Shown: one piece after another, positions 14,910-37,454 of the stretch
Layout: each line of letters opens with the position of its first letter
How positions within the stretch are numbered: position 1 is the first letter of the stretch
Origin: a virus
Lineage: Duplodnaviria > Heunggongvirae > Uroviricota > Caudoviricetes
Direction: 5' to 3' (one strand)
IMG/VR virus record: IMGVR_UViG_2703718810_000005
Location: 1-50,143 of that record
Length of the DNA: 50,143 nt
The notes under the pieces: generated by a model
Told to the model about the DNA's origin: nothing
The model's input: only the letters and a program-made list of their open reading frames with translations
The model's database searches: none
Translations under genes and position numbers: made by a program

Positions 14910-16821
14910 TCACTCCTCCGGACAGCTTCGCTGCCAGTTCTTTAAGGGTTGGCCGGGTCGTCTCTTCTTCCCGGGATTTTGCCAGTACAGCCAGATCAAG
15001 CTGCCAGCGTTGCACGGACACACGTAATGCCGCATAGGCATACACCAGGCAGTCCAGCGCTTCGTTACGCCGCTTTTTGTTATCCCACAGCAGACGCATC
15101 TTTCCTTTTTCCCACTTCTCCACAAGCTCTTCCGCGACCAGTTGCTGCGCCTCTGTCTGCGAAAAAATCTCCGGATCATCAGGAAAACGGATGGCATACG
15201 ACGTGGCTTCATCCGCAGGCGTGGGATCGGCTTTCATACGGGCATAGAGAATTTCTTTTGCGGTGTCCGTCCCCACTTCACACAGATACACGCCCCGCTG
15301 ATTGCGGGTTTTCGGCATGGTGATCACCGGCTTGCCATAGACAGATGCGCCTTTTACCGGCAGCACCCGGAAAACACCGTGTTTTTTTGACCTCTGATAG
15401 ACAATTTCACCATCGATCCCCCCGGTGTCCCAGCAGACACGGGAAATGGTCATTTCGGTTCCGTCTGCATGGCAGTATTTTTTGTTGATCGCCGCATCCA
15501 CACGTAACAGCGTCTCTTCCTCATCGGGACGGCCCATAATGATGATTTTATCCACCAGAAAAGCTTCCTCTCCCGGTGCCCATCCCCAGACATACATCTC
15601 AAAACGGTTTCGCTGCGAGTCAATGCCCGCCGTCAGATAAACCACCCGGGCTGGCACCGCCGCCGTGTAATGCACGACCTTATCCATCAGTACCTGGTGA
15701 TCGAGTTTTTCGCCCACGGCCTCTTCCCAGGTCTCGCCCAGCGTGGTGTTCACAAAGGTTTTCAGGCCGTTGGGATCTTTCAGTGCATCCAGCCAGTCAT
15801 AGACTATCTGTACCCAGGTGGTGAACGGACTGTACGCCGTCCAGATATGGAACGTGATGGAGCGCGGCGGCGGAATTTCATTATCCGCGGCGCTGAAAAA
15901 CGTCAGACCGTCACGGGTCCACATCCCCGTGTTTTCACAGATCCACCGCCCGTTGCTCTGGTCAAGCTCAGACTGATGGATCACGCAGCCATGATGTTCA
16001 CAGAGGTAGAAAACGCTTTCGGGGCTGTCCTTCTCCCATTTAAGGCCAAAAGGCGTGGATTCATCGCCAAATTTCAGATACTGCTCCTCCCCACAGTGTG
16101 GGCAGGGCACATAAAAACGCATGAAATGCGCCGACTCGTTGGCCGCTTTTTCGATCTGGCAGGTGCCTTTGATTTTAGGCGTCGAGCCGCGAATGGATTT
16201 GGGCCATACAGAGCCCTCAATACGTTTATCCCCAAGCAGGGTTGGCGAACCCTCTTTTTCGACATCCGGTTCGAACGAGGAAAGTTCGTCATAGCAGACC
16301 ACGTCCACGGATTTTTCACGGTAGTTTTTAGCGGCAGCCCCGCCCAGGCACCAGAAGCCCACGCCCGATGAAAAACGTTTCAGCGTGAGGGTATTATCAC
16401 GATGTTTACGCCCAAACCACGGTGCAAGATCGAGTAAAACCGGCACATCCCTGATCGTGGGTTCCACATGAGATTTCATAAAATCTTCAGCAGCAGAATC
16501 CGTGGGCTGGAAAAGAAGGCTGTTGCGTGATTTATGCTCAATAAAATAAGCCTCCACTCCCAGCAACATCTTTGTATAACCAACACGGGCAGATTTAATC
16601 AGATTAACAGTGCGGATCCGGTCATTCCCCATGCTGTTCATGATGGCAACCTGAAACGGCAGTGTTTCCCACCGCCCCGGGGTGTAAGATGACTCTTTCG
16701 GAAGGTAATAATGTCGATCTGCCCACTGAACTGTCGTCAGAGGGACAGGAATTTTTAGCGCAAGGAGGCCGGTTGCTATCGCTCCTGCAGAATTAGCCGC
16801 CCTCAGTTCGTCTGAAATCAT
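14893..16821 (-). CDS. A: Terminase large subunit A
   Basis: ...[20 protein letters not shown]...[20 protein letters not shown]... like lambda gpA; ATG at 16821 (MISDEL) by spacing to conserved block; ATGs at 16839 and 16863 also possible. Confidence 0.9.
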
Positions 16822-31848: not shown

Positions 31849-32069
31849 GCAGCACCTCCGAGATGCTTCATGTTTTTTCCGGAGCGAAAGGCTATAAGCG
31901 GCATACTGACGCGGTAATTACGGCCCAGCGGTTCACAAATCACCTTCTGACATTCACGGTCAACCAGGCTAACACGTAGAACATGCCCTGCAGGCGTGGT
32001 GTACCACTGACCCGGACGAGGACAACGGAAAGTCTGATTGGTAAAACGTTTGAAAATATTCCGGATCAT
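31845..32069 (-). CDS. Hypothetical small protein
   Basis: 74 aa ORF with ATGA-type overlaps to both neighbours. Confidence 0.35.
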   Translation of the reverse strand: MIRNIFKRFTNQTFRCPRPGQWYTTPAGHVLRVSLVDRECQKVICEPLGRNYRVSMPLIAFRSGKNMKHLGGAA

Positions 32070-33217
32070 TTGCGCCCCCTTGCCTCTGAAGGGTTCAGCG
32101 ACAAATTTATGAGACTGGCCAGTAGCGCCGCGTCGTTGATGCGGTCATACAGACTTACAGCCAGCGGGGATTCGGCTTTTGCCAACATGGGATAAAGCTG
32201 CTGCAGCCAGACCTTGTGGATTACCGACAGGTGGGAGTAAAGCACGCTGGCGTTATCTGCGGCATCGCTCAGCGTGGATGGCTTTGAAAGCAGTTTTTCC
32301 ATCTGGTTAAAGGCATTTATGTATGCCTCTTTGAACCGGGCAGCACGTTTACCAGTGAAGCCCATGGCAAGAAACGCAAAACCGTCGCGGGTGATTTGGT
32401 AACAAGGGAGTTTGCGGCCTGATGCGTCGGTGTATTCACTTAACACAAAATTGTGTTCAGTAAATTCAGCGGAACATTCGAGGTTTCTAATTCTATCTAA
32501 AACCCGCTCATGCCGTTTAGTAAAGTAATTAGCTACTGCAAGAGATGTGGTGACAACGCGACCATTGATAATCGTGATTTCAGGGTGAGATTGGGTTGGG
32601 AGAGTAGTCATGGTGACAGCCCCTATGTTGAATTCAATGAACTCACCACCAAGGCTTTCCACGACCATATAGGTGGTGAGACGTACAGGGGTGGAAATAC
32701 CGGTCAACATAGAACCCGGCCCAACCGAAGTTGGCCCTGCACGCCCCACCATAATTTGGGCGTAACGATGCTCATGACACGAAAAAACCGCATGAGCGCG
32801 GTTGTGCTCTATATTGAATTTCGGGTTTCCACGCCCGGCCCCCGCTTTATAAGGTGCCTGAGCAGTGTAACGTCCCGGAATTGCAGAATCAATATGCTGG
32901 TGGTCCTTCACACTCAACAAAATCACGCCTGAATTTCCACAAAGGACTAAAGCACTCATGCGGGTAGTCTTTGCGAAGATAGATAACGCGCTGTGTTTCT
33001 GGCTCCCAACGAATAACATGAACATAAAGTCCTCTTCCGTCACGAAACCAGCGGTTAAGTTCCTGCACAACTCGCCCCCCACAGTCAGGTAAAGTTCTCT
33101 GTGGTTACTTACAGCCAGGTGATTTGGTAATCTGCATTCATGCCGTAACAACAGGTGTTCAGCGACGCTGACCACCAGCTGTTGCGACAAACGGTTATTT
33201 GCCGTTAAACTATTCAT
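32066..33217 (-). CDS. Rha-domain protein with ~200 aa N-terminal extension of unknown function
   Basis: 383 aa ORF; C-terminal half has Rha-like ...INGRVVTTSLAVANYFTKRHERVLDRIRNLE...; internal ATG at 32611 could be the true start of a shorter Rha protein. Confidence 0.5.
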   Translation of the reverse strand: MNSLTANNRLSQQLVVSVAEHLLLRHECRLPNHLAVSNHRELYLTVGGELCRNLTAGFVTEEDFMFMLFVGSQKHSALSIFAKTTRMSALVLCGNSGVILLSVKDHQHIDSAIPGRYTAQAPYKAGAGRGNPKFNIEHNRAHAVFSCHEHRYAQIMVGRAGPTSVGPGSMLTGISTPVRLTTYMVVESLGGEFIEFNIGAVTMTTLPTQSHPEITIINGRVVTTSLAVANYFTKRHERVLDRIRNLECSAEFTEHNFVLSEYTDASGRKLPCYQITRDGFAFLAMGFTGKRAARFKEAYINAFNQMEKLLSKPSTLSDAADNASVLYSHLSVIHKVWLQQLYPMLAKAESPLAVSLYDRINDAALLASLINLSLNPSEARGRK

Positions 33218-33771
33218 GCGTTAGTTTCTCCACAACCAGAAGCAATCGACGCCACGACGCCCGGAGCTGCACACTCGCGGGCGTTACTCTTTTCTGGAGC
33301 GCAGAAGATTTTGTAGACCAGTGCTGCATGCTCCTGGAGCTTCGAAATTGAAAGATACAGTTCGTCGTTAATTGCTGTCTTCTCATGCGGTTCCACTACC
33401 CCATCTTCGATTGCCGAACGAATCTGCTTTGAGTAACTCCCGATCTGTTCGATGACTTCCAGCAGACGCTGGTTAATATCGGCGTTGTCCACATCCTCGA
33501 CGTCAGGAAGAGACACAAAGACGCCATTTGCAGACTGCGCCACAGCGTCAGCAATGAAGTGAGTTCCACCAGCACGTTGTAAAATCATTGCCCATCCCAG
33601 CGGGAAAATCTGATCGCCATCTGCACGAAGGCGGTTGAATAATGCGTTCTCTGTTACATCCAGCCACTCAGCAGCTTCAGCGTAACCCCCCGGCAACGCC
33701 GCGATAGTTTTTCTGACAGCTTTCACGTACCACTCAGGCTGTTTTTCCACTTTCCAGTGATGATTACCCAC
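33214..33771 (-). CDS. YdaT-like regulatory protein (cII-position gene)
   Basis: 185 aa, immediately downstream of cro-like gene; ...GGTHFIADAVAQSANGVFVSLP... resembles YdaT family. Confidence 0.5.
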   Translation of the reverse strand: MGNHHWKVEKQPEWYVKAVRKTIAALPGGYAEAAEWLDVTENALFNRLRADGDQIFPLGWAMILQRAGGTHFIADAVAQSANGVFVSLPDVEDVDNADINQRLLEVIEQIGSYSKQIRSAIEDGVVEPHEKTAINDELYLSISKLQEHAALVYKIFCAPEKSNARECAAPGVVASIASGCGETNA

Positions 33772-34024
33772 GGCTTACCTCCTGTTCCTGTGGTTTAAAC
33801 CCATTCTGGTTTTGGCTAGATTGAAAACGTGCCGGATAAAGAATCTGCATTTCGCTGATTTCTCCCTTAAAAAAATTGGCCAGACGCTCTGCCAGATCGA
33901 TAGATGGAATTTGTTCCAGTCTTTCAATACGACTCAGCGTCGCTGGATTGACCTGAACGCCCGCAGCAACATGCTGCAAAGTAAATCCGTGCGCCTTACG
34001 CACATTCCGTAATGGTGATTGCAT
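33764..34024 (-). CDS. cro: Cro-like HTH repressor (XRE family)
   Basis: 86 aa, ...VRKAHGFTLQHVAAGVQVNPATLSRIERLEQIPSIDLAERLANFF...; GGAGG RBS; divergent from cI. Confidence 0.8.
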   Translation of the reverse strand: MQSPLRNVRKAHGFTLQHVAAGVQVNPATLSRIERLEQIPSIDLAERLANFFKGEISEMQILYPARFQSSQNQNGFKPQEQEVSRG

Positions 34025-34121
34025 ATAACCTCCACATATTGCGTGATGAGCATATTATTTCACGCAAATATTTTGCGCAAGTTGATTTGCTTAACGCGCA
34101 ATAAAGAAATGTAATAAACGC
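34025..34121. promoter_or_regulatory. Immunity operator region (OR-like) with divergent promoters
   Basis: Palindromic half-sites TTGCGTGA-N13-TCACGCAA and TTGCGCAA...ACGCGCAA between cro and cI; TAATAA hexamer 4 nt upstream of cI ATG. Confidence 0.65.
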
Positions 34122-34814
34122 ATGAACATAGGAAATCGAGTCAGACAACTTCGCCAGGCGAAGAACATGAAAATCGCCGATCTCGCTGAAGCAATAGGAG
34201 TGGATGCGGCGAATATCTCGCGCCTCGAAACAGGTAAGCAGAAACAATTCACTGAACAAGCCCTGAGTAATATTGCCAGGAGCTTAGGTGTTGATATTGC
34301 TGATCTCTTTACCTCAGACCTCAAAAGTAATACTGTATGTAAAAACAGTATTAGTGAGGATGTTGCGCAGGTGAAGGATGTATTCCGTATTGAAATGCTG
34401 GATGTCAGTGCCAGTGCGGGAAATGGCCTTATCCAGGGCGGTGATGTCATTGATGTGATTCATGCCATTGAATACAGAACTGATAATGCTGTATCGATGT
34501 TTGGTGGACGACCAGCAAATCACATTAAAGTTATCAACGTTCGTGGGGACAGTATGTGTCCAACCATTGAGCCAGGAGATCTCATCTTCGTTGATATCAG
34601 TATCAATCAGTTTGATGGGGATGGTATATATGTATTTGGTTTTGATGATAAAATTTACGTCAAACGACTGCAAATGATACCTGATAAACTGCTGGTAATT
34701 TCTGATAATCAGATTTACCGCGAATGGGGAATTACCAGCGAAAACGAACATCGGTTTATGGTCTTTGGAAAGGTCTTAATCAGTCAGTCACAAACCCTTA
34801 AGCGACACAATTAA
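34122..34814 (+). CDS. cI: CI-type prophage repressor (HTH + S24 LexA-like peptidase)
   Basis: 230 aa; N-terminal ...RVRQLRQAKNMKIADLAEAIGVDAANISRLETGK...; C-terminal ...GDSMCPTIEPGDLIFVD... and ...KRLQ... S24 motifs. Confidence 0.85.
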   Translation: MNIGNRVRQLRQAKNMKIADLAEAIGVDAANISRLETGKQKQFTEQALSNIARSLGVDIADLFTSDLKSNTVCKNSISEDVAQVKDVFRIEMLDVSASAGNGLIQGGDVIDVIHAIEYRTDNAVSMFGGRPANHIKVINVRGDSMCPTIEPGDLIFVDISINQFDGDGIYVFGFDDKIYVKRLQMIPDKLLVISDNQIYREWGITSENEHRFMVFGKVLISQSQTLKRHN

Positions 34815-34835
34815 CCCCCTACCTCAATATCAATT

Positions 34836-34857
34836 AGCCACCAGAAGGTGGCTTTTC
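34836..34857 (+). terminator. Intrinsic terminator after cI
   Basis: agccacc-agaa-ggtggct followed by TTTT. Confidence 0.6.
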
Positions 34858-34879
34858 ATTACCCACCAAATTGCATATC

Positions 34880-34930
34880 TCGCAATAAAAACACTTGCAT
34901 AATGCGCAACTTCATTTTATCTTTCTTTCC
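34880..34930 (+). promoter_or_regulatory. Candidate OL/pL region
   Basis: TTGCAT-N17-TATCTT with operator-like TGCGCAA/TCGCAA half-sites as in OR. Confidence 0.4.
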
Positions 34931-35354
34931 AGACATACAAACAAGGTACTAACAAAATTTGGTTGTAACACGGCGTATGGCACATGCGTCGTTAGCGGTC
35001 TGGGGACGTTAAAGGGGACAATCCACTCCTTGCTCGGGCAAACAAACCAGGTAGCCGGAATGTGCAAGTCAATGATGATGCTGATAAGACGCCTAACCAG
35101 CGTGGCGGTTCGGTTTGACACCTGGGAAGAGACCAGGGTGCAACGATGAGGGCATTTATGGAACCGCGACAAAGTGTGGTGCCGTAACTGGCTAAGTGCT
35201 CTCAGCGTTGTGGTGAATGCGCAGGCTGATGCGCGAAAGACATTGCAGCTATTGCGGAAAAGAGCTGTTCGGCGGGGCAATTAAACGCCCGTGAGAGTCT
35301 GAAATAACCGCAAGCCGGAGATCAGCACCGGTCACCACAACAGCCACTGCTTTG

Positions 35355-35400
35355 GCGGTACCAGTTTGTACACTTGCTTCCGGCTGGTACCGCTCTTTTT
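35355..35400 (+). terminator. Strong hairpin plus T-run in pL leader (terminator or regulatory structure); T-run overlaps boxA-like CGCTCTTTTTACAA
   Basis: 10 bp perfect stem gcggtaccag/ctggtaccgc with 19 nt loop followed by tcTTTTT. Confidence 0.55.
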
Positions 35401-35537
35401 ACAAAACAGAGAAGAGCATCACCGGACGACGGGCTCATAACCCAATCCATCCGGGCGGCTGCCACCGCAGGTGTTCTTCTCTGTTTTGTGGAGAAACCAA
35501 CCGACCTTGCAGGGTCGATATGATGAGGAGCAACAAA

Positions 35538-35900
35538 ATGGCTAGCGAACGCAGTACTGATGTGCAGGCATTTATCGGGGAGCTGGACGGCGGCGTATTT
35601 GAAACAAAAATCTGCGCAGTTCTCAGTGAAGTCGCTTCCGGTGTGATGAACACGAAAACCAAAGGTAAGGTCTCGCTCAACCTGGAAATCGAACCGTTTG
35701 ATGAGAACCGTGTGAAAATCAAACACAAACTCTCATATGTTCGCCCGACTAACCGCGGGAAAATTTCCGAAGAAGACACCACCGAAACGCCGATGTATGT
35801 CAATCGCGGTGGTCGCCTTACTATTCTGCAGGAAGACCAGGGACAATTACTGACTCTTGCCGGTGAGCCTGACGGAAAACTCCGCGCAGCAGGTCATTAA
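35538..35900 (+). CDS. YfdP-like prophage protein
   Basis: 120 aa from MASERSTDVQAF...; GAGGAG RBS 7 nt upstream; size and position match yfdP of CPS-53-type prophages. Confidence 0.6.
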   Translation: MASERSTDVQAFIGELDGGVFETKICAVLSEVASGVMNTKTKGKVSLNLEIEPFDENRVKIKHKLSYVRPTNRGKISEEDTTETPMYVNRGGRLTILQEDQGQLLTLAGEPDGKLRAAGH

Positions 35901-35965
35901 TATCGTTCTTAATTAACTGATTATTTATCTCATCACTGAATATCTTAATATAGTGAGGACTTATT

Positions 35966-36790
35966 ATGTCTCAGAACTTAGACGCAACCGCAATTAATCA
36001 AATCCATGCCCTTATTTCTGCTCAGGGTGTTAATGAAATTATCAGTAAGATTGGTGCCGACGCAGTGGCATTACCTGAAAATTTCCGCATTCATGATCTG
36101 GAAAAATTTAATTTAAATCGCTTCCGTTTCCGTGGTGCGCTTTCCACTGCCAGCATCGATGACTTTACCCGTTATTCTAAAGATCTTGCAGATGAAGGCA
36201 CCCGCTGCTTTATCGATGCCGATAATATGCGTGCCGTCAGTGTGCTTAACCTGGGTACTATTGATGAACCAGGTCACGCAGATAACACCGCCACTCTCAA
36301 ACTGAAAAAGACAGCACAGTTCTCTGCTCTGTTGTCTGTTAACGGCGAGCGTAACTCCCAGAAGTCACTGGCAGAATGGATTGAAGACTGGGCCGACTAC
36401 CTTGTGGGCTTTGATGCTAATGGTGACGCCATTCAGGCAACAAAAGCGGCTGCGGCAGTCCGTAAAATCACAATTGAAGCGAACCAGACTGCTGATTTTG
36501 AAGACAATGACTTCAGCGGCAAACGCTCCCTGATGGAGTCTGTCGAAGCGAAGACCAAAGACATTATGCCAGTGGCATTTGAATTTAAATGCGTTCCGTT
36601 TGAAGGCCTGAAAGAACGTCCATTTAAATTACGACTCAGCATTATCACTGGTGATCGCCCTGTACTGGTTCTGCGCATTATTCAGCTGGAAGCAGTGCAG
36701 GAAGAAATGGCTAACGAATTTCGTGATCTGCTTGTTGAGAAATTCAAAGACAGCAAAGTCGAAACCTTTATTGGTACTTTCACCGCCTGA
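35966..36790 (+). CDS. YfdQ-like prophage protein
   Basis: 274 aa, same size and order as yfdQ. Confidence 0.6.
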
Positions 36791-36917
36791 TTTCATTACT
36801 GCAAATGCCCCTGCGGGGGCATTTATGGAAACGTAATTAACTCAATAATCACCGGATGGTGAGGGCTTCCTTTTACCAGAATTCAGCGCGCTGCAGCGCA
36901 TATACGTGGAGAACAAA

Positions 36918-37454
36918 ATGTCATTTATTAAAACTTTTTCCGGGAAGCATTTTTATTATGACAGGATAAATAAAGACGACATCGTGATTAACGATATCGC
37001 AGTTTCCCTCTCAAATATCTGTCGCTTTGCAGGGCATCTTTCACACTTCTACAGCGTCGCCCAACATGCGGTGCTTTGCAGCCAGCTGGTACCGCAGGAG
37101 TTTGCTTTCGAAGCGTTAATGCATGATGCAACAGAAGCGTATTGTCAGGACATCCCCGCGCCACTGAAACGCCTTCTTCCTGACTATAAACGGATGGAAG
37201 AAAAAATAGACGCCGTAATCCGTGAGAAATACGGGTTACCCCCGGTTATGAGCACGCCCGTGAAATATGCCGATCTCATCATGCTGGCAACCGAACGCCG
37301 CGATCTCGGGCTTGATGATGGCTCTTTCTGGCCTGTACTGGAAGGTATCCCGGCAACAGAGATGTTCAAAGTGATTCCACTGTCGCCAGGCCATGCCTAC
37401 GGGATGTTTATGGAACGTTTTAACGAGTTATCGGAGTTACGCAAATGCGCATGA
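36918..37454 (+). CDS. HD-domain phosphohydrolase (YfdR-like 5'-deoxynucleotidase)
   Basis: 178 aa from MSFIKTF; ...HLSHFYSVAQHAVLC... and ...MHDATEAY... HD motifs; GGAGAA RBS. Confidence 0.7.
   Translation: MSFIKTFSGKHFYYDRINKDDIVINDIAVSLSNICRFAGHLSHFYSVAQHAVLCSQLVPQEFAFEALMHDATEAYCQDIPAPLKRLLPDYKRMEEKIDAVIREKYGLPPVMSTPVKYADLIMLATERRDLGLDDGSFWPVLEGIPATEMFKVIPLSPGHAYGMFMERFNELSELRKCA

Follow-up and report, generated by a model that had tools for sequence, protein, structure and literature searches.

The window analysed here is a stretch of viral DNA of 50,143 nucleotides (nt) (IMG/VR record IMGVR_UViG_2703718810_000005) from a mEp460/SfV-type lambdoid prophage, and it is 99.2% identical to phage mEp460 over positions 34815–35540. 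After the cI-type repressor gene, the first plus-strand gene with a good Shine-Dalgarno sequence is yfdP (phrog_204), followed by yfdQ and yfdR, and in a 99.9% identical Stx1 prophage in RefSeq the plus-strand operon continues through yfdQ and yfdR to xis and int. The interval 34860–35537 is the ~610-nt untranslated leader of this cI-controlled early-left (PL) operon, yfdP to int. The PGAP annotation of the 99.9% identical prophage has nothing between the repressor gene and yfdP. In order, the locus carries PL and the left operators (OL), an RNA designated module A, a short leader sequence, a second RNA designated motif R1, an intrinsic terminator, a third RNA designated module C, a small hairpin and the ribosome-binding site (RBS) of yfdP (Table 1). 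A 726-nt query has a partial match in 2665 of 5426 complete Escherichia coli genomes, that is, in about half of them, and is covered to at least 80% in 798.

The entire 621-nt leader is more stable than its shuffles on the plus and the minus strand (z-scores of −4.8 and −3.5, respectively). An initial annotation of this DNA had described a long, non-coding and heavily structured leader, an operon starting only at 35538 and no Arg-rich N-like open reading frame (ORF) in the leader. The fold scores, the ORF list and PHROG search, and the yfdP ATG with GAGGAG upstream agree with that description. The elements it listed are real, but the two largest, module A and R1 (34965–35342), were missed. The covariation check that it proposed across relatives shows compensatory changes that preserve every one of module A, R1, the terminator, module C and the RBS hairpin. 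The leader is a chain of separately conserved RNA modules, not one regulatory fold. Lambdoid early leaders are a classic model of transcription control, and the three conserved folded RNAs within these 600 bases have no entry in an RNA-family database.

Hypothetical proteins are annotated in this interval in mEp460 and several phage records, and the interval could accordingly be read as encoding small proteins, namely the 122-amino-acid minus-strand ORF mEp460_037 or the plus-strand ORFs of 84, 36 and 25 amino acids. We find this reading barely credible, since the substitutions track base pairing and not codons, the homologues differ by indels and whole-cassette swaps, a PHROG search with the four ORFs gives no match, and PGAP leaves the interval unannotated in RefSeq genomes. 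Both mEp460_037 (window 34912–35280) and a second minus-strand ORF, mEp460_036 (35322–35726), overlap covarying RNA helices and are probably annotation artefacts.

R1 forms four arms in a tRNA-like arrangement. In an alignment of six copies, the stem GTTGTGGTG/CACCACAAC closes the structure, and inside it the invariant hairpin GAAUGCGCAGGCUGAUGCGC and a second hairpin, GCCGGAGAUCAGCACCGG, flank a variable middle. The window copy is the sole match of the R1 covariance model in the window. Among 52 sequences, 8 of the 9 pairs in helix P1 and 3 of the 5 pairs in P4 show changes on both sides; 96% of the cells pair, versus 27–51% when the partner is slid, and no shuffle reaches the covariation score. 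P2 covaries in copies that were found via module A, not via the R1 20-mer (GCGCA/UGCGC, GCACA/UGUGC, GGCGG/CCGCC, and UCGCA/UGCGA). In the copies found in this manner, the loop–loop pair occurs as G-C, G-U and one compensatory A-U, and is otherwise invariant. No nucleotide separates P4 from P1, and P1 in the window is 9–10 base pairs (bp) long. A model with stacked acceptor-like and T-like arms and a loop–loop contact would fit this four-arm topology, suggesting three-dimensional mimicry of tRNA.

Across copies, the length of the variable arm extends from ~30 nt to over 170 nt, and the arm can hold cargo. In L191 (7013–7204; L-numbers denote the relative loci or contigs compared with the window) it contains a complete tRNA, and in L092 (3649–3849, minus strand) a hammerhead-like CUGAUGAG...CGAAAC core. 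In P2 itself, a hammerhead reading of CUGAUG...GAAA was ruled out, as the GAAA is not conserved, and an extended P1 (CAGTG/CACTG) in the window was dismissed for the same lack of conservation in relatives. P1 resembles GcvB-type CA/GU-rich sites, but identity with the anti-sRNAs (sRNA, small RNA) AgvB/AsxR was rejected, these being 51–60-nt RNAs 3' of PR'. The Pas sRNA is unrelated to the leader RNAs.

No Rfam 15 model matches R1; a scan of the window at gathering thresholds gives no hit on the leader, a search of 34700–35700 to an E value of 10 gave chance-level hits only (E ≥ 1.7), and R1 and module A at 13 other loci have no match either. ARAGORN finds no tRNA in the window, and RF00005 gives no match even at E values up to 10. 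As in phage tRNAs and tRNA-like RNAs, the closing stem of R1 runs straight on into a 5-bp arm, and there is a second arm with a pairing loop and a variable third arm; R1 also takes the slot of a tRNA-Arg gene between identical flanks and is enriched beside tRNAs. It differs from tRNAs in its closing stem of 9–10 bp or longer, in its loops, which are not those of the D and T arms, and in lacking a conserved 3' CCA. In T4, stable RNAs C and D lie beside the tRNA cluster, and GOLLD can enclose a tRNA. R1 resembles GOLLD and ROOL in being phage-borne, often near tRNA genes and, in one copy, wrapped around a tRNA, but it is five to six times smaller and has no Rfam match to either.

R1 and the terminator coincide with an RNA that has already been published. 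sRNA-17 is a 193-nt RNA of E. coli K1 RS218, located in a prophage likewise called mEp460-like (Front Microbiol 2020, PMC7719688). The oligonucleotides in Table S2 of that paper (full-length, 5' and 3' rapid amplification of cDNA ends (RACE), and Northern) match window positions 35206–35399 on the plus strand. The RACE 'full length' primers map to 35206–35238 and 35368–35399, and the antisense Northern probe maps to 35270–35319. The mapped 3' RACE end in RS218 (35399) is the U run of the terminator. By these positions, sRNA-17 consists of R1 and the terminator in the PL leader, and it shares a transcript with module A. The amplicon for quantitative reverse-transcription PCR in the same paper spans 34956–35354, and therefore module A and R1 lie on one longer transcript. 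Because of this longer transcript, and because a consensus scan finds no sigma-70 consensus promoter just upstream of 35206, the 5' end at 35206 is most likely produced by processing.

In that paper, sRNA-17 is viewed as a strain-restricted, ArcA-controlled and trans-acting RNA with its own promoter in 34956–35211 (PMC7719688), whereas here it belongs to a family that extends over hundreds of phages and many bacterial phyla. RNA-seq of the wild-type RS218 lysogen gave 0.49 reads for yfdP, while sRNA-17 is visible on the Northern blot (PMC7719688). In the mutant in which 35233–35350 is replaced, yfdP reaches 47 reads and yfdR rises from 0 to 8.5, the largest changes in the data set (PMC7719688). 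Since yfdP and yfdR, the strongest 'targets' in Table 1 of that paper (relative of window 35538–37454), are directly downstream of the deletion, their rise points to polarity or action in cis and not to regulation in trans. On this cis reading, the RS218 data are in vivo evidence that the leader insulates the early-left genes. Placing sRNA-17, which is linked to virulence in meningitis E. coli, in a terminated early-operon leader thus changes how the 'targets' yfdP and yfdR are read.

The terminator itself is strong (minimum free energy (MFE) of −21.2 kcal/mol, z = −4.8), and its stem covaries in relatives (L412, L259, and L168 among divergent yfdP leaders). The perfect 10-bp hairpin with a T-run that had been noted at 35355–35400 is thus the terminator of sRNA-17. 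A boxA-like sequence said to merge with the T-run, CGCTCTTTTTACAA, is present at 35391–35404 but is not conserved in relatives (CGTCCTTTTT, CGCCCTTTTT); it consists of the last bases of the terminator stem and the U tract. An ops/RfaH likeness of GGCGGTAC, within the same stem (7 of 8 core bases, compared by eye), was ruled out. In L115, L223, L259 and L168, the terminator has a large loop with a conserved GATAATGTTCT, which is absent from the window. This sequence is possibly a −10 element that would start transcripts inside the terminator, and such transcripts would escape termination.

We regard it as somewhat probable that the whole is an RNA-producing PL leader of separate cassettes, ended by a terminator that acts as an attenuator or insulator. 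Transcription from PL would make the A–R1 RNA first, in lysogens via leak or read-through, and most polymerases would stop at the terminator. A cut at the foot of the R1 closing stem would then release sRNA-17 as a stable RNA of 193 nt, and this RNA would act in trans on a conserved host partner. Module C would be transcribed and yfdP to int expressed only where polymerase gets past the terminator. The terminator would thereby both form the 3' end of the sRNA and keep yfdP to int off until enough transcription or a read-through mechanism overcomes it.

Several points weigh against this model. R1 and the first half of module A are thermodynamically unremarkable (z = −1.9 and −0.15, respectively), and the case for both rests on covariation. 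A non-consensus promoter could instead make 35206 a primary start. The experiments were done in the relative RS218, not with this window; the resistance cassette in the RS218 mutant brings a promoter that could by itself account for the increase in yfdP and yfdR, and the published sRNA-17 phenotypes may reflect polarity or action in cis. Finally, enough polymerase must pass a strong terminator after induction, and an unrecognised antitermination would shift the weight to the antiterminator reading of module A considered below.

Table 1. Features at the repressor–yfdP interval and its flanks, in window coordinates.
Feature	Position	Strand	Details and basis
cro	33764–34024	−	gene order at the locus
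cI-type S24 repressor gene	34122–34814	+	stop codon at 34814
Hairpin after the cI stop	34836–34853	+	7-bp stem with 5 G-C pairs, tail TTTCATTACC; terminator-like on both strands, marks the end of the repressor gene
OL-like 15-mers	34871–34909		TTGCATATCTCGCAA (34871–34885) and TTGCATAATGCGCAA (34895–34909); pattern TTGC-N7-GCAA
PL-like promoter	34895–34923	+	−35 TTGCAT (34895–34900), 17-nt spacer, −10 TATCTT (34918–34923); read from the sequence
Module A	34965–35156	+	four-helix RNA; covariation, alignment A5
Module A, H1	34971–34978 / 34984–34991	+	alignment A5
Module A, H2	34995–35002 / 35048–35055	+	alignment A5
Module A, invariant 19-mer	35050–35068	+	GGTAGCCGGAATGTGCAAG; alignment A5
Module A, H3	35089–35092 / 35100–35103	+	loop CUAACCA; alignment A5
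Module A, H4	35121–35125 / 35133–35137	+	loop GAAGAGA; alignment A5
Variable linker	35157–35205	+	3' end is the conserved leader AAGTGCTCTCAGC (35194–35206)
Motif R1 (sRNA-17 body)	35206–35342	+	tRNA-shaped four-arm RNA; covariance model 96.4 bits, E = 8e-28
R1, P1	35207–35215 / 35333–35341	+	covariation
R1, P2	35219–35223 / 35230–35234	+	loop GGCUGA; covariation
R1, complementary loops	35225–35229 / 35322–35326	+	GCUGA / UCAGC
R1, variable arm	35235–35313	+	
R1, P4	35314–35318 / 35328–35332	+	loop AGAUCAGCA; covariation
Intrinsic terminator	35355–35400	+	stem 35355–35364 / 35384–35393 (perfect 10 bp), 19-nt loop, UCUUUUU
Module C	35401–35489	+	long-stem three-way junction; closing stem 35401–35425 / 35465–35489
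Module C, inner hairpins	35422–35454; 35455–35468	+	conserved loop GGCUCAUAACCCAAUC in the first
Small RBS hairpin	35502–35517	+	loop UUGCAG; 8 nt upstream of the Shine-Dalgarno sequence
Shine-Dalgarno sequence and yfdP start	35525–35540	+	GAGGAG (35525–35530), ATG at 35538; first early-left gene

R1 is spread far beyond this prophage. BLAST with the sRNA-17 body finds full-length copies of 97–98% identity in P1-type plasmids and a Klebsiella T1-like phage, and in many unrelated phages only the two ends match. The exact R1 20-mer has at least 120 matches in IMG/VR and at least 120 in the GTDB genome set. Among the genome matches listed are Gamma-, Beta- and Alphaproteobacteria, Desulfobacterota and Bdellovibrionota. 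Metagenome bins with the labels Flavobacterium, Coriobacteriia, Phycisphaerales, Acidobacteriota and Nitrospira contain the 20-mer as well (L238, L245, L280, L314, and L328); for these five bin types the explanation could be genuine breadth or proteobacterial phage contigs binned in error. Escherichia, Klebsiella and Pseudomonas phages have an identical R1 core, and one allele is 88–96% identical among phages of unrelated types from Enterobacter, Klebsiella, Escherichia and Pseudomonas.

The settings of the copies are diverse. In many lambdoid contigs, a genuine nutL (boxA + boxB) precedes R1 and an N gene of the lambda, P22 or phi21 type follows it; as N and nut are present alongside R1 there, R1 is not an N substitute. 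Phages P1 and P7 carry two or three tandem R1 copies after tRNA-Asn and tRNA-Thr in the C1-controlled ban operon. Between tRNA-Thr and terB/tciA, the tandem copies are unannotated (L003 4013–4149, 4442–4545, and 4703–4828; L209 1715–1862 and 2059–2180), and in P7 ARAGORN calls a tRNA-Ser at L209 1866–1952, without Rfam support. In HK620, a copy of 82.6 bits (L086 1501–1596; HK620 16093–16188) lies between PR'/qut and the late terminator tQ. In Klebsiella T1-like siphophages (L084 1501–1614; L087 1507–1643), R1 adjoins the gene for the major tail protein and is encoded on the other strand from the tail genes on either side, which suggests an independent transcription unit.

Many R1 copies have their own −10 box and terminator, and some are promoter–motif–terminator units without an ORF. 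A same-strand tRNA lies within 300 nt of 19 of the 185 unique copies, versus 0.7% of random positions (~15-fold enrichment). In close relatives of the prophage, P1, the terminator and module C are kept and R1 is replaced by two other interiors, one of which is a divergent R1 (28.8 bits). By these comparisons, R1 is an autonomous, mobile RNA gene.

The variety of neighbours also bears on whether R1 is a ligand- or factor-sensing aptamer that, like a riboswitch, sets termination at 35399 or translation of the next gene. The invariant core, the covarying P1 and the variable arm would suit an aptamer, and a terminator follows within 110 nt in 33 of 179 copies, and a Shine-Dalgarno sequence with an ORF start within 80 nt in 61 of 179. 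Against these stand the downstream genes, which are unrelated (N-like, yfdP, and many others) or absent, and the search for a conserved alternative pairing of R1 with the terminator, which found none. Tandem arrays after tRNAs in phage P1, units without an ORF and a whole tRNA in the variable arm are also at odds with an aptamer, and we judge this role to be highly improbable.

Module A is likewise defined by covariation. In alignment A5 (42 sequences, <95% identity), 96.8% of the cells in the helices are paired, versus 29–47% with the partner slid. Both sides have changed in 11 of 23 pairs, a level reached by 0 of 500 shuffles, and one pair is split evenly, 21 sequences having AU and the remaining 21 GC. 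Its 19-mer has at least 120 matches in IMG/VR, and Rfam gives no match to module A in the window. Copies are found upstream of tRNA-Arg(UCU) in podophages of the phiV10, SPN1S and Klebsiella types, and in P1/P7 a copy lies directly after tRNA-Ile and before ban (ARAGORN labels this tRNA as tRNA-Met, anticodon CAT). Module A stands mostly right after the early promoter in several immunity types, though the census is dominated by close relatives and is indicative.

What follows module A is exchangeable. The leader AGTGCTCTCAGCGTT comes next; the position after it is taken by tRNA-Arg or by a cassette of the R1 type, and a terminator, GGCGGT...ACCGCC, lies beyond a small hairpin. In phiV10-type phages, the leader AAGTGCTCTCAGC stands before the tRNA-Arg gene, and tRNA-Arg(UCU) is flanked by the same 5' leader and 3' hairpin/terminator in phiV10, SPN9TCW and a Klebsiella phage. 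Module A, cassette and terminator therefore make up a mobile RNA unit in which R1 and tRNA-Arg are interchangeable. A boxA reading of AGTGCTCTT, 5' of P1, was set aside, a tRNA-type 5' leader or trailer remnant being more likely.

The initial annotation had compared the locus in concept with N-independent antitermination. This is possible and is best placed on module A, but it is not the best-supported reading. In this alternative, module A (or A plus R1) would be a cis-acting, put-like processive antiterminator RNA that folds in the emerging PL transcript, binds the polymerase and allows read-through of 35355–35400 and later terminators, while transcripts starting downstream of module A, or lacking it, would stop and give sRNA-17. 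The search for an N gene was negative: there is no Arg-rich ORF in 34860–35537, the genes from yfdP to the sixth early-left gene are not N-like, no N is annotated in mEp460 or the 99.9% identical RefSeq prophage, and the only antiterminator annotated in the near-identical prophage is of the Q family. The leader has no nut site either, with no conserved boxA and no boxB-type hairpin after CGCTCTTTTTACAA. The position of module A is also suggestive. It begins ~35–40 nt past the predicted PL start, it is transcribed first after the early promoter in several immunity types, as is putL in HK022 (PMC9378689), and a conserved terminator always lies between module A and the first gene. In phiV10-type phages, a plus-strand gene follows the terminator of the A–tRNA unit. 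A put-like module A would explain how PL transcripts pass a terminator that stops others.

The put RNAs are ~70 nt long with two stem-loops, and putL lies directly after the early promoter in HK022 (PMC9378689). The hallmark of put RNAs is terminator read-through in cis via the beta-prime zinc-binding domain of RNA polymerase. The present leader resembles the put systems of HK022 and HK639 in having a non-coding RNA right after the early promoter of a lambdoid phage without N, with terminators downstream; HK639 has an annotated putL-like RNA just after PL. The sizes differ, module A having ~190 nt and four helices and R1 137 nt and four arms. By sequence, the comparison covered the HK639 putL-like RNA, which scores 19 locally against module A and the whole leader, versus shuffle means of 16–18 (39–100 of 300 shuffles are as high), and membership of the leader in the put family is not supported. 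Furthermore, module A is found mid-operon, after tRNA-Ile, in P1/P7, and the RS218 lysogen has the module A transcript while yfdP is silent. Weighing both sides, we consider an antiterminator function of module A unlikely.

Module C, between the terminator and the RBS, is far more stable than its shuffles (MFE of −47.8 kcal/mol, z = −7.0; 0 of 200 shuffles are as stable). Its closing stem has 15 perfect base pairs or more within 25-nt arms, and compensatory changes keep all three stems in L115, L223, L296, L393 and L412. Two relatives have no module C, and there the terminator ends up ~25 nt before the yfdP start. The small RBS hairpin is weak alone (z = −0.7) and covaries in relatives (GACC/GGUC, GGCGG/CCGCC, and GCCC/GGGC). 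A long inverted repeat had been reported at 35402–35415 / 35476–35489; it is real, with its second arm displaced by one base (35475–35488). The idea that this repeat and the hairpin before it work as a joint switch does not hold, since the one is the separate, conserved stem of a three-way junction and the other the sRNA-17 terminator.

The stems on both sides of the terminator raise a further alternative, that R1 and module C are mainly processing or stability signals (RNase P-, RNase III- or RNase E-type) at which the polycistronic early transcript is cleaved and yfdP translation tuned, in the manner of the RNase III-sensitive stem of the lambda N leader, with no function in trans. In the N-containing relatives, R1 is enclosed by a long stem, an extended P1 GCTTTGGGGTGTGGTG...CACCACACCACCAAAGC, which is the same stem as in the lambda N leader. 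RNase III reportedly processes this lambda stem. A lambda-type closing duplex of ~17–20 bp near the RBS is found in lambda and the N-containing relatives; in the window, the stem of module C, with at least 15 perfect base pairs beside the RBS, would qualify, and P1, with 9–10 bp, is short for RNase III. The tRNA slot of R1 and the mapped 5' end at the foot of P1 also speak for processing. Processing would require neither a 20-base core that stays the same from phylum to phylum nor dissemination as an independent gene with a promoter and terminator of its own, and we consider it distinctly unlikely that processing is the whole role of these RNAs.

The lambda PL–nutL–N leader is a positional counterpart, both leaders being downstream of PL/OL and upstream of the first early-left gene. 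Unlike lambda, this phage is without N, boxB and a conserved boxA, and has the terminator and module C in place of N. The R1 model has no match on the lambda leader, whose stem interior differs.

The start of the leader is defined less sharply. A promoter/operator-like region had been placed at ~34880–34930, and the operator-like repeats are indeed present there; the promoter is only a weak match to the consensus and is not listed by the consensus promoter scan. At the same position, relatives of other immunity types have TTGACA-16-CATAAT, and L339 and L364 share TATCTT. The predicted PL transcript would start near 34930. A third TTGC-N7-GCAA copy is found at 34087, within the cro–cI spacer. 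The pattern has 4 matches in 50 kb, 3 of them in the immunity region, a count that is unremarkable alone (17 of 100 shuffles reach 4). The two leader 15-mers are presumed to be OL sites for the cI-type repressor.

Searching the literature with the core sequences, we found no paper describing them. sRNA-17 itself is already published; the nature of the R1 family (the tRNA-shaped kissing-loop core, the N leaders, the tRNA operons, and the cross-phylum spread) is undescribed in the literature searched. This novelty is set against Rfam and the literature, and a catalogue of 10,006 phage RNA candidates (PMC10690425) could list R1 or module A unnamed. The identity of the R1 core across phages and several phyla points to a conserved host partner. 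With more doubt than confidence, we propose that R1 and module A may be undescribed and very widespread phage RNA families. R1 would be a tRNA-shaped scaffold whose kissing-loop core is invariant and whose cargo arm is hypervariable, exchanged between unrelated temperate and virulent phages across phyla and acting in trans on a universal host machine (candidates being tRNA-processing or -targeting enzymes, the ribosome, RNA polymerase, or a defence nuclease), and module A possibly a new class of cis antiterminator. Since R1 lies inside the N leaders of many lambda-like phages, which have been studied for decades, its role is testable with existing genetics.

Elsewhere in the window, Rfam models identify further RNAs. 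A C4 antisense RNA (82 bits; 32669–32756, minus strand) and isrK (58 bits; 32781–32857, minus strand) are both within a 383-amino-acid minus-strand ORF (32066–33217) annotated as Rha/antirepressor. The region looks like the antisense control of the P1/P7 immI type ahead of an antirepressor, and the N-terminal part of the ORF may be non-coding. A full-length STnc100 sRNA is found at 24885–25098 on the minus strand (194 bits).

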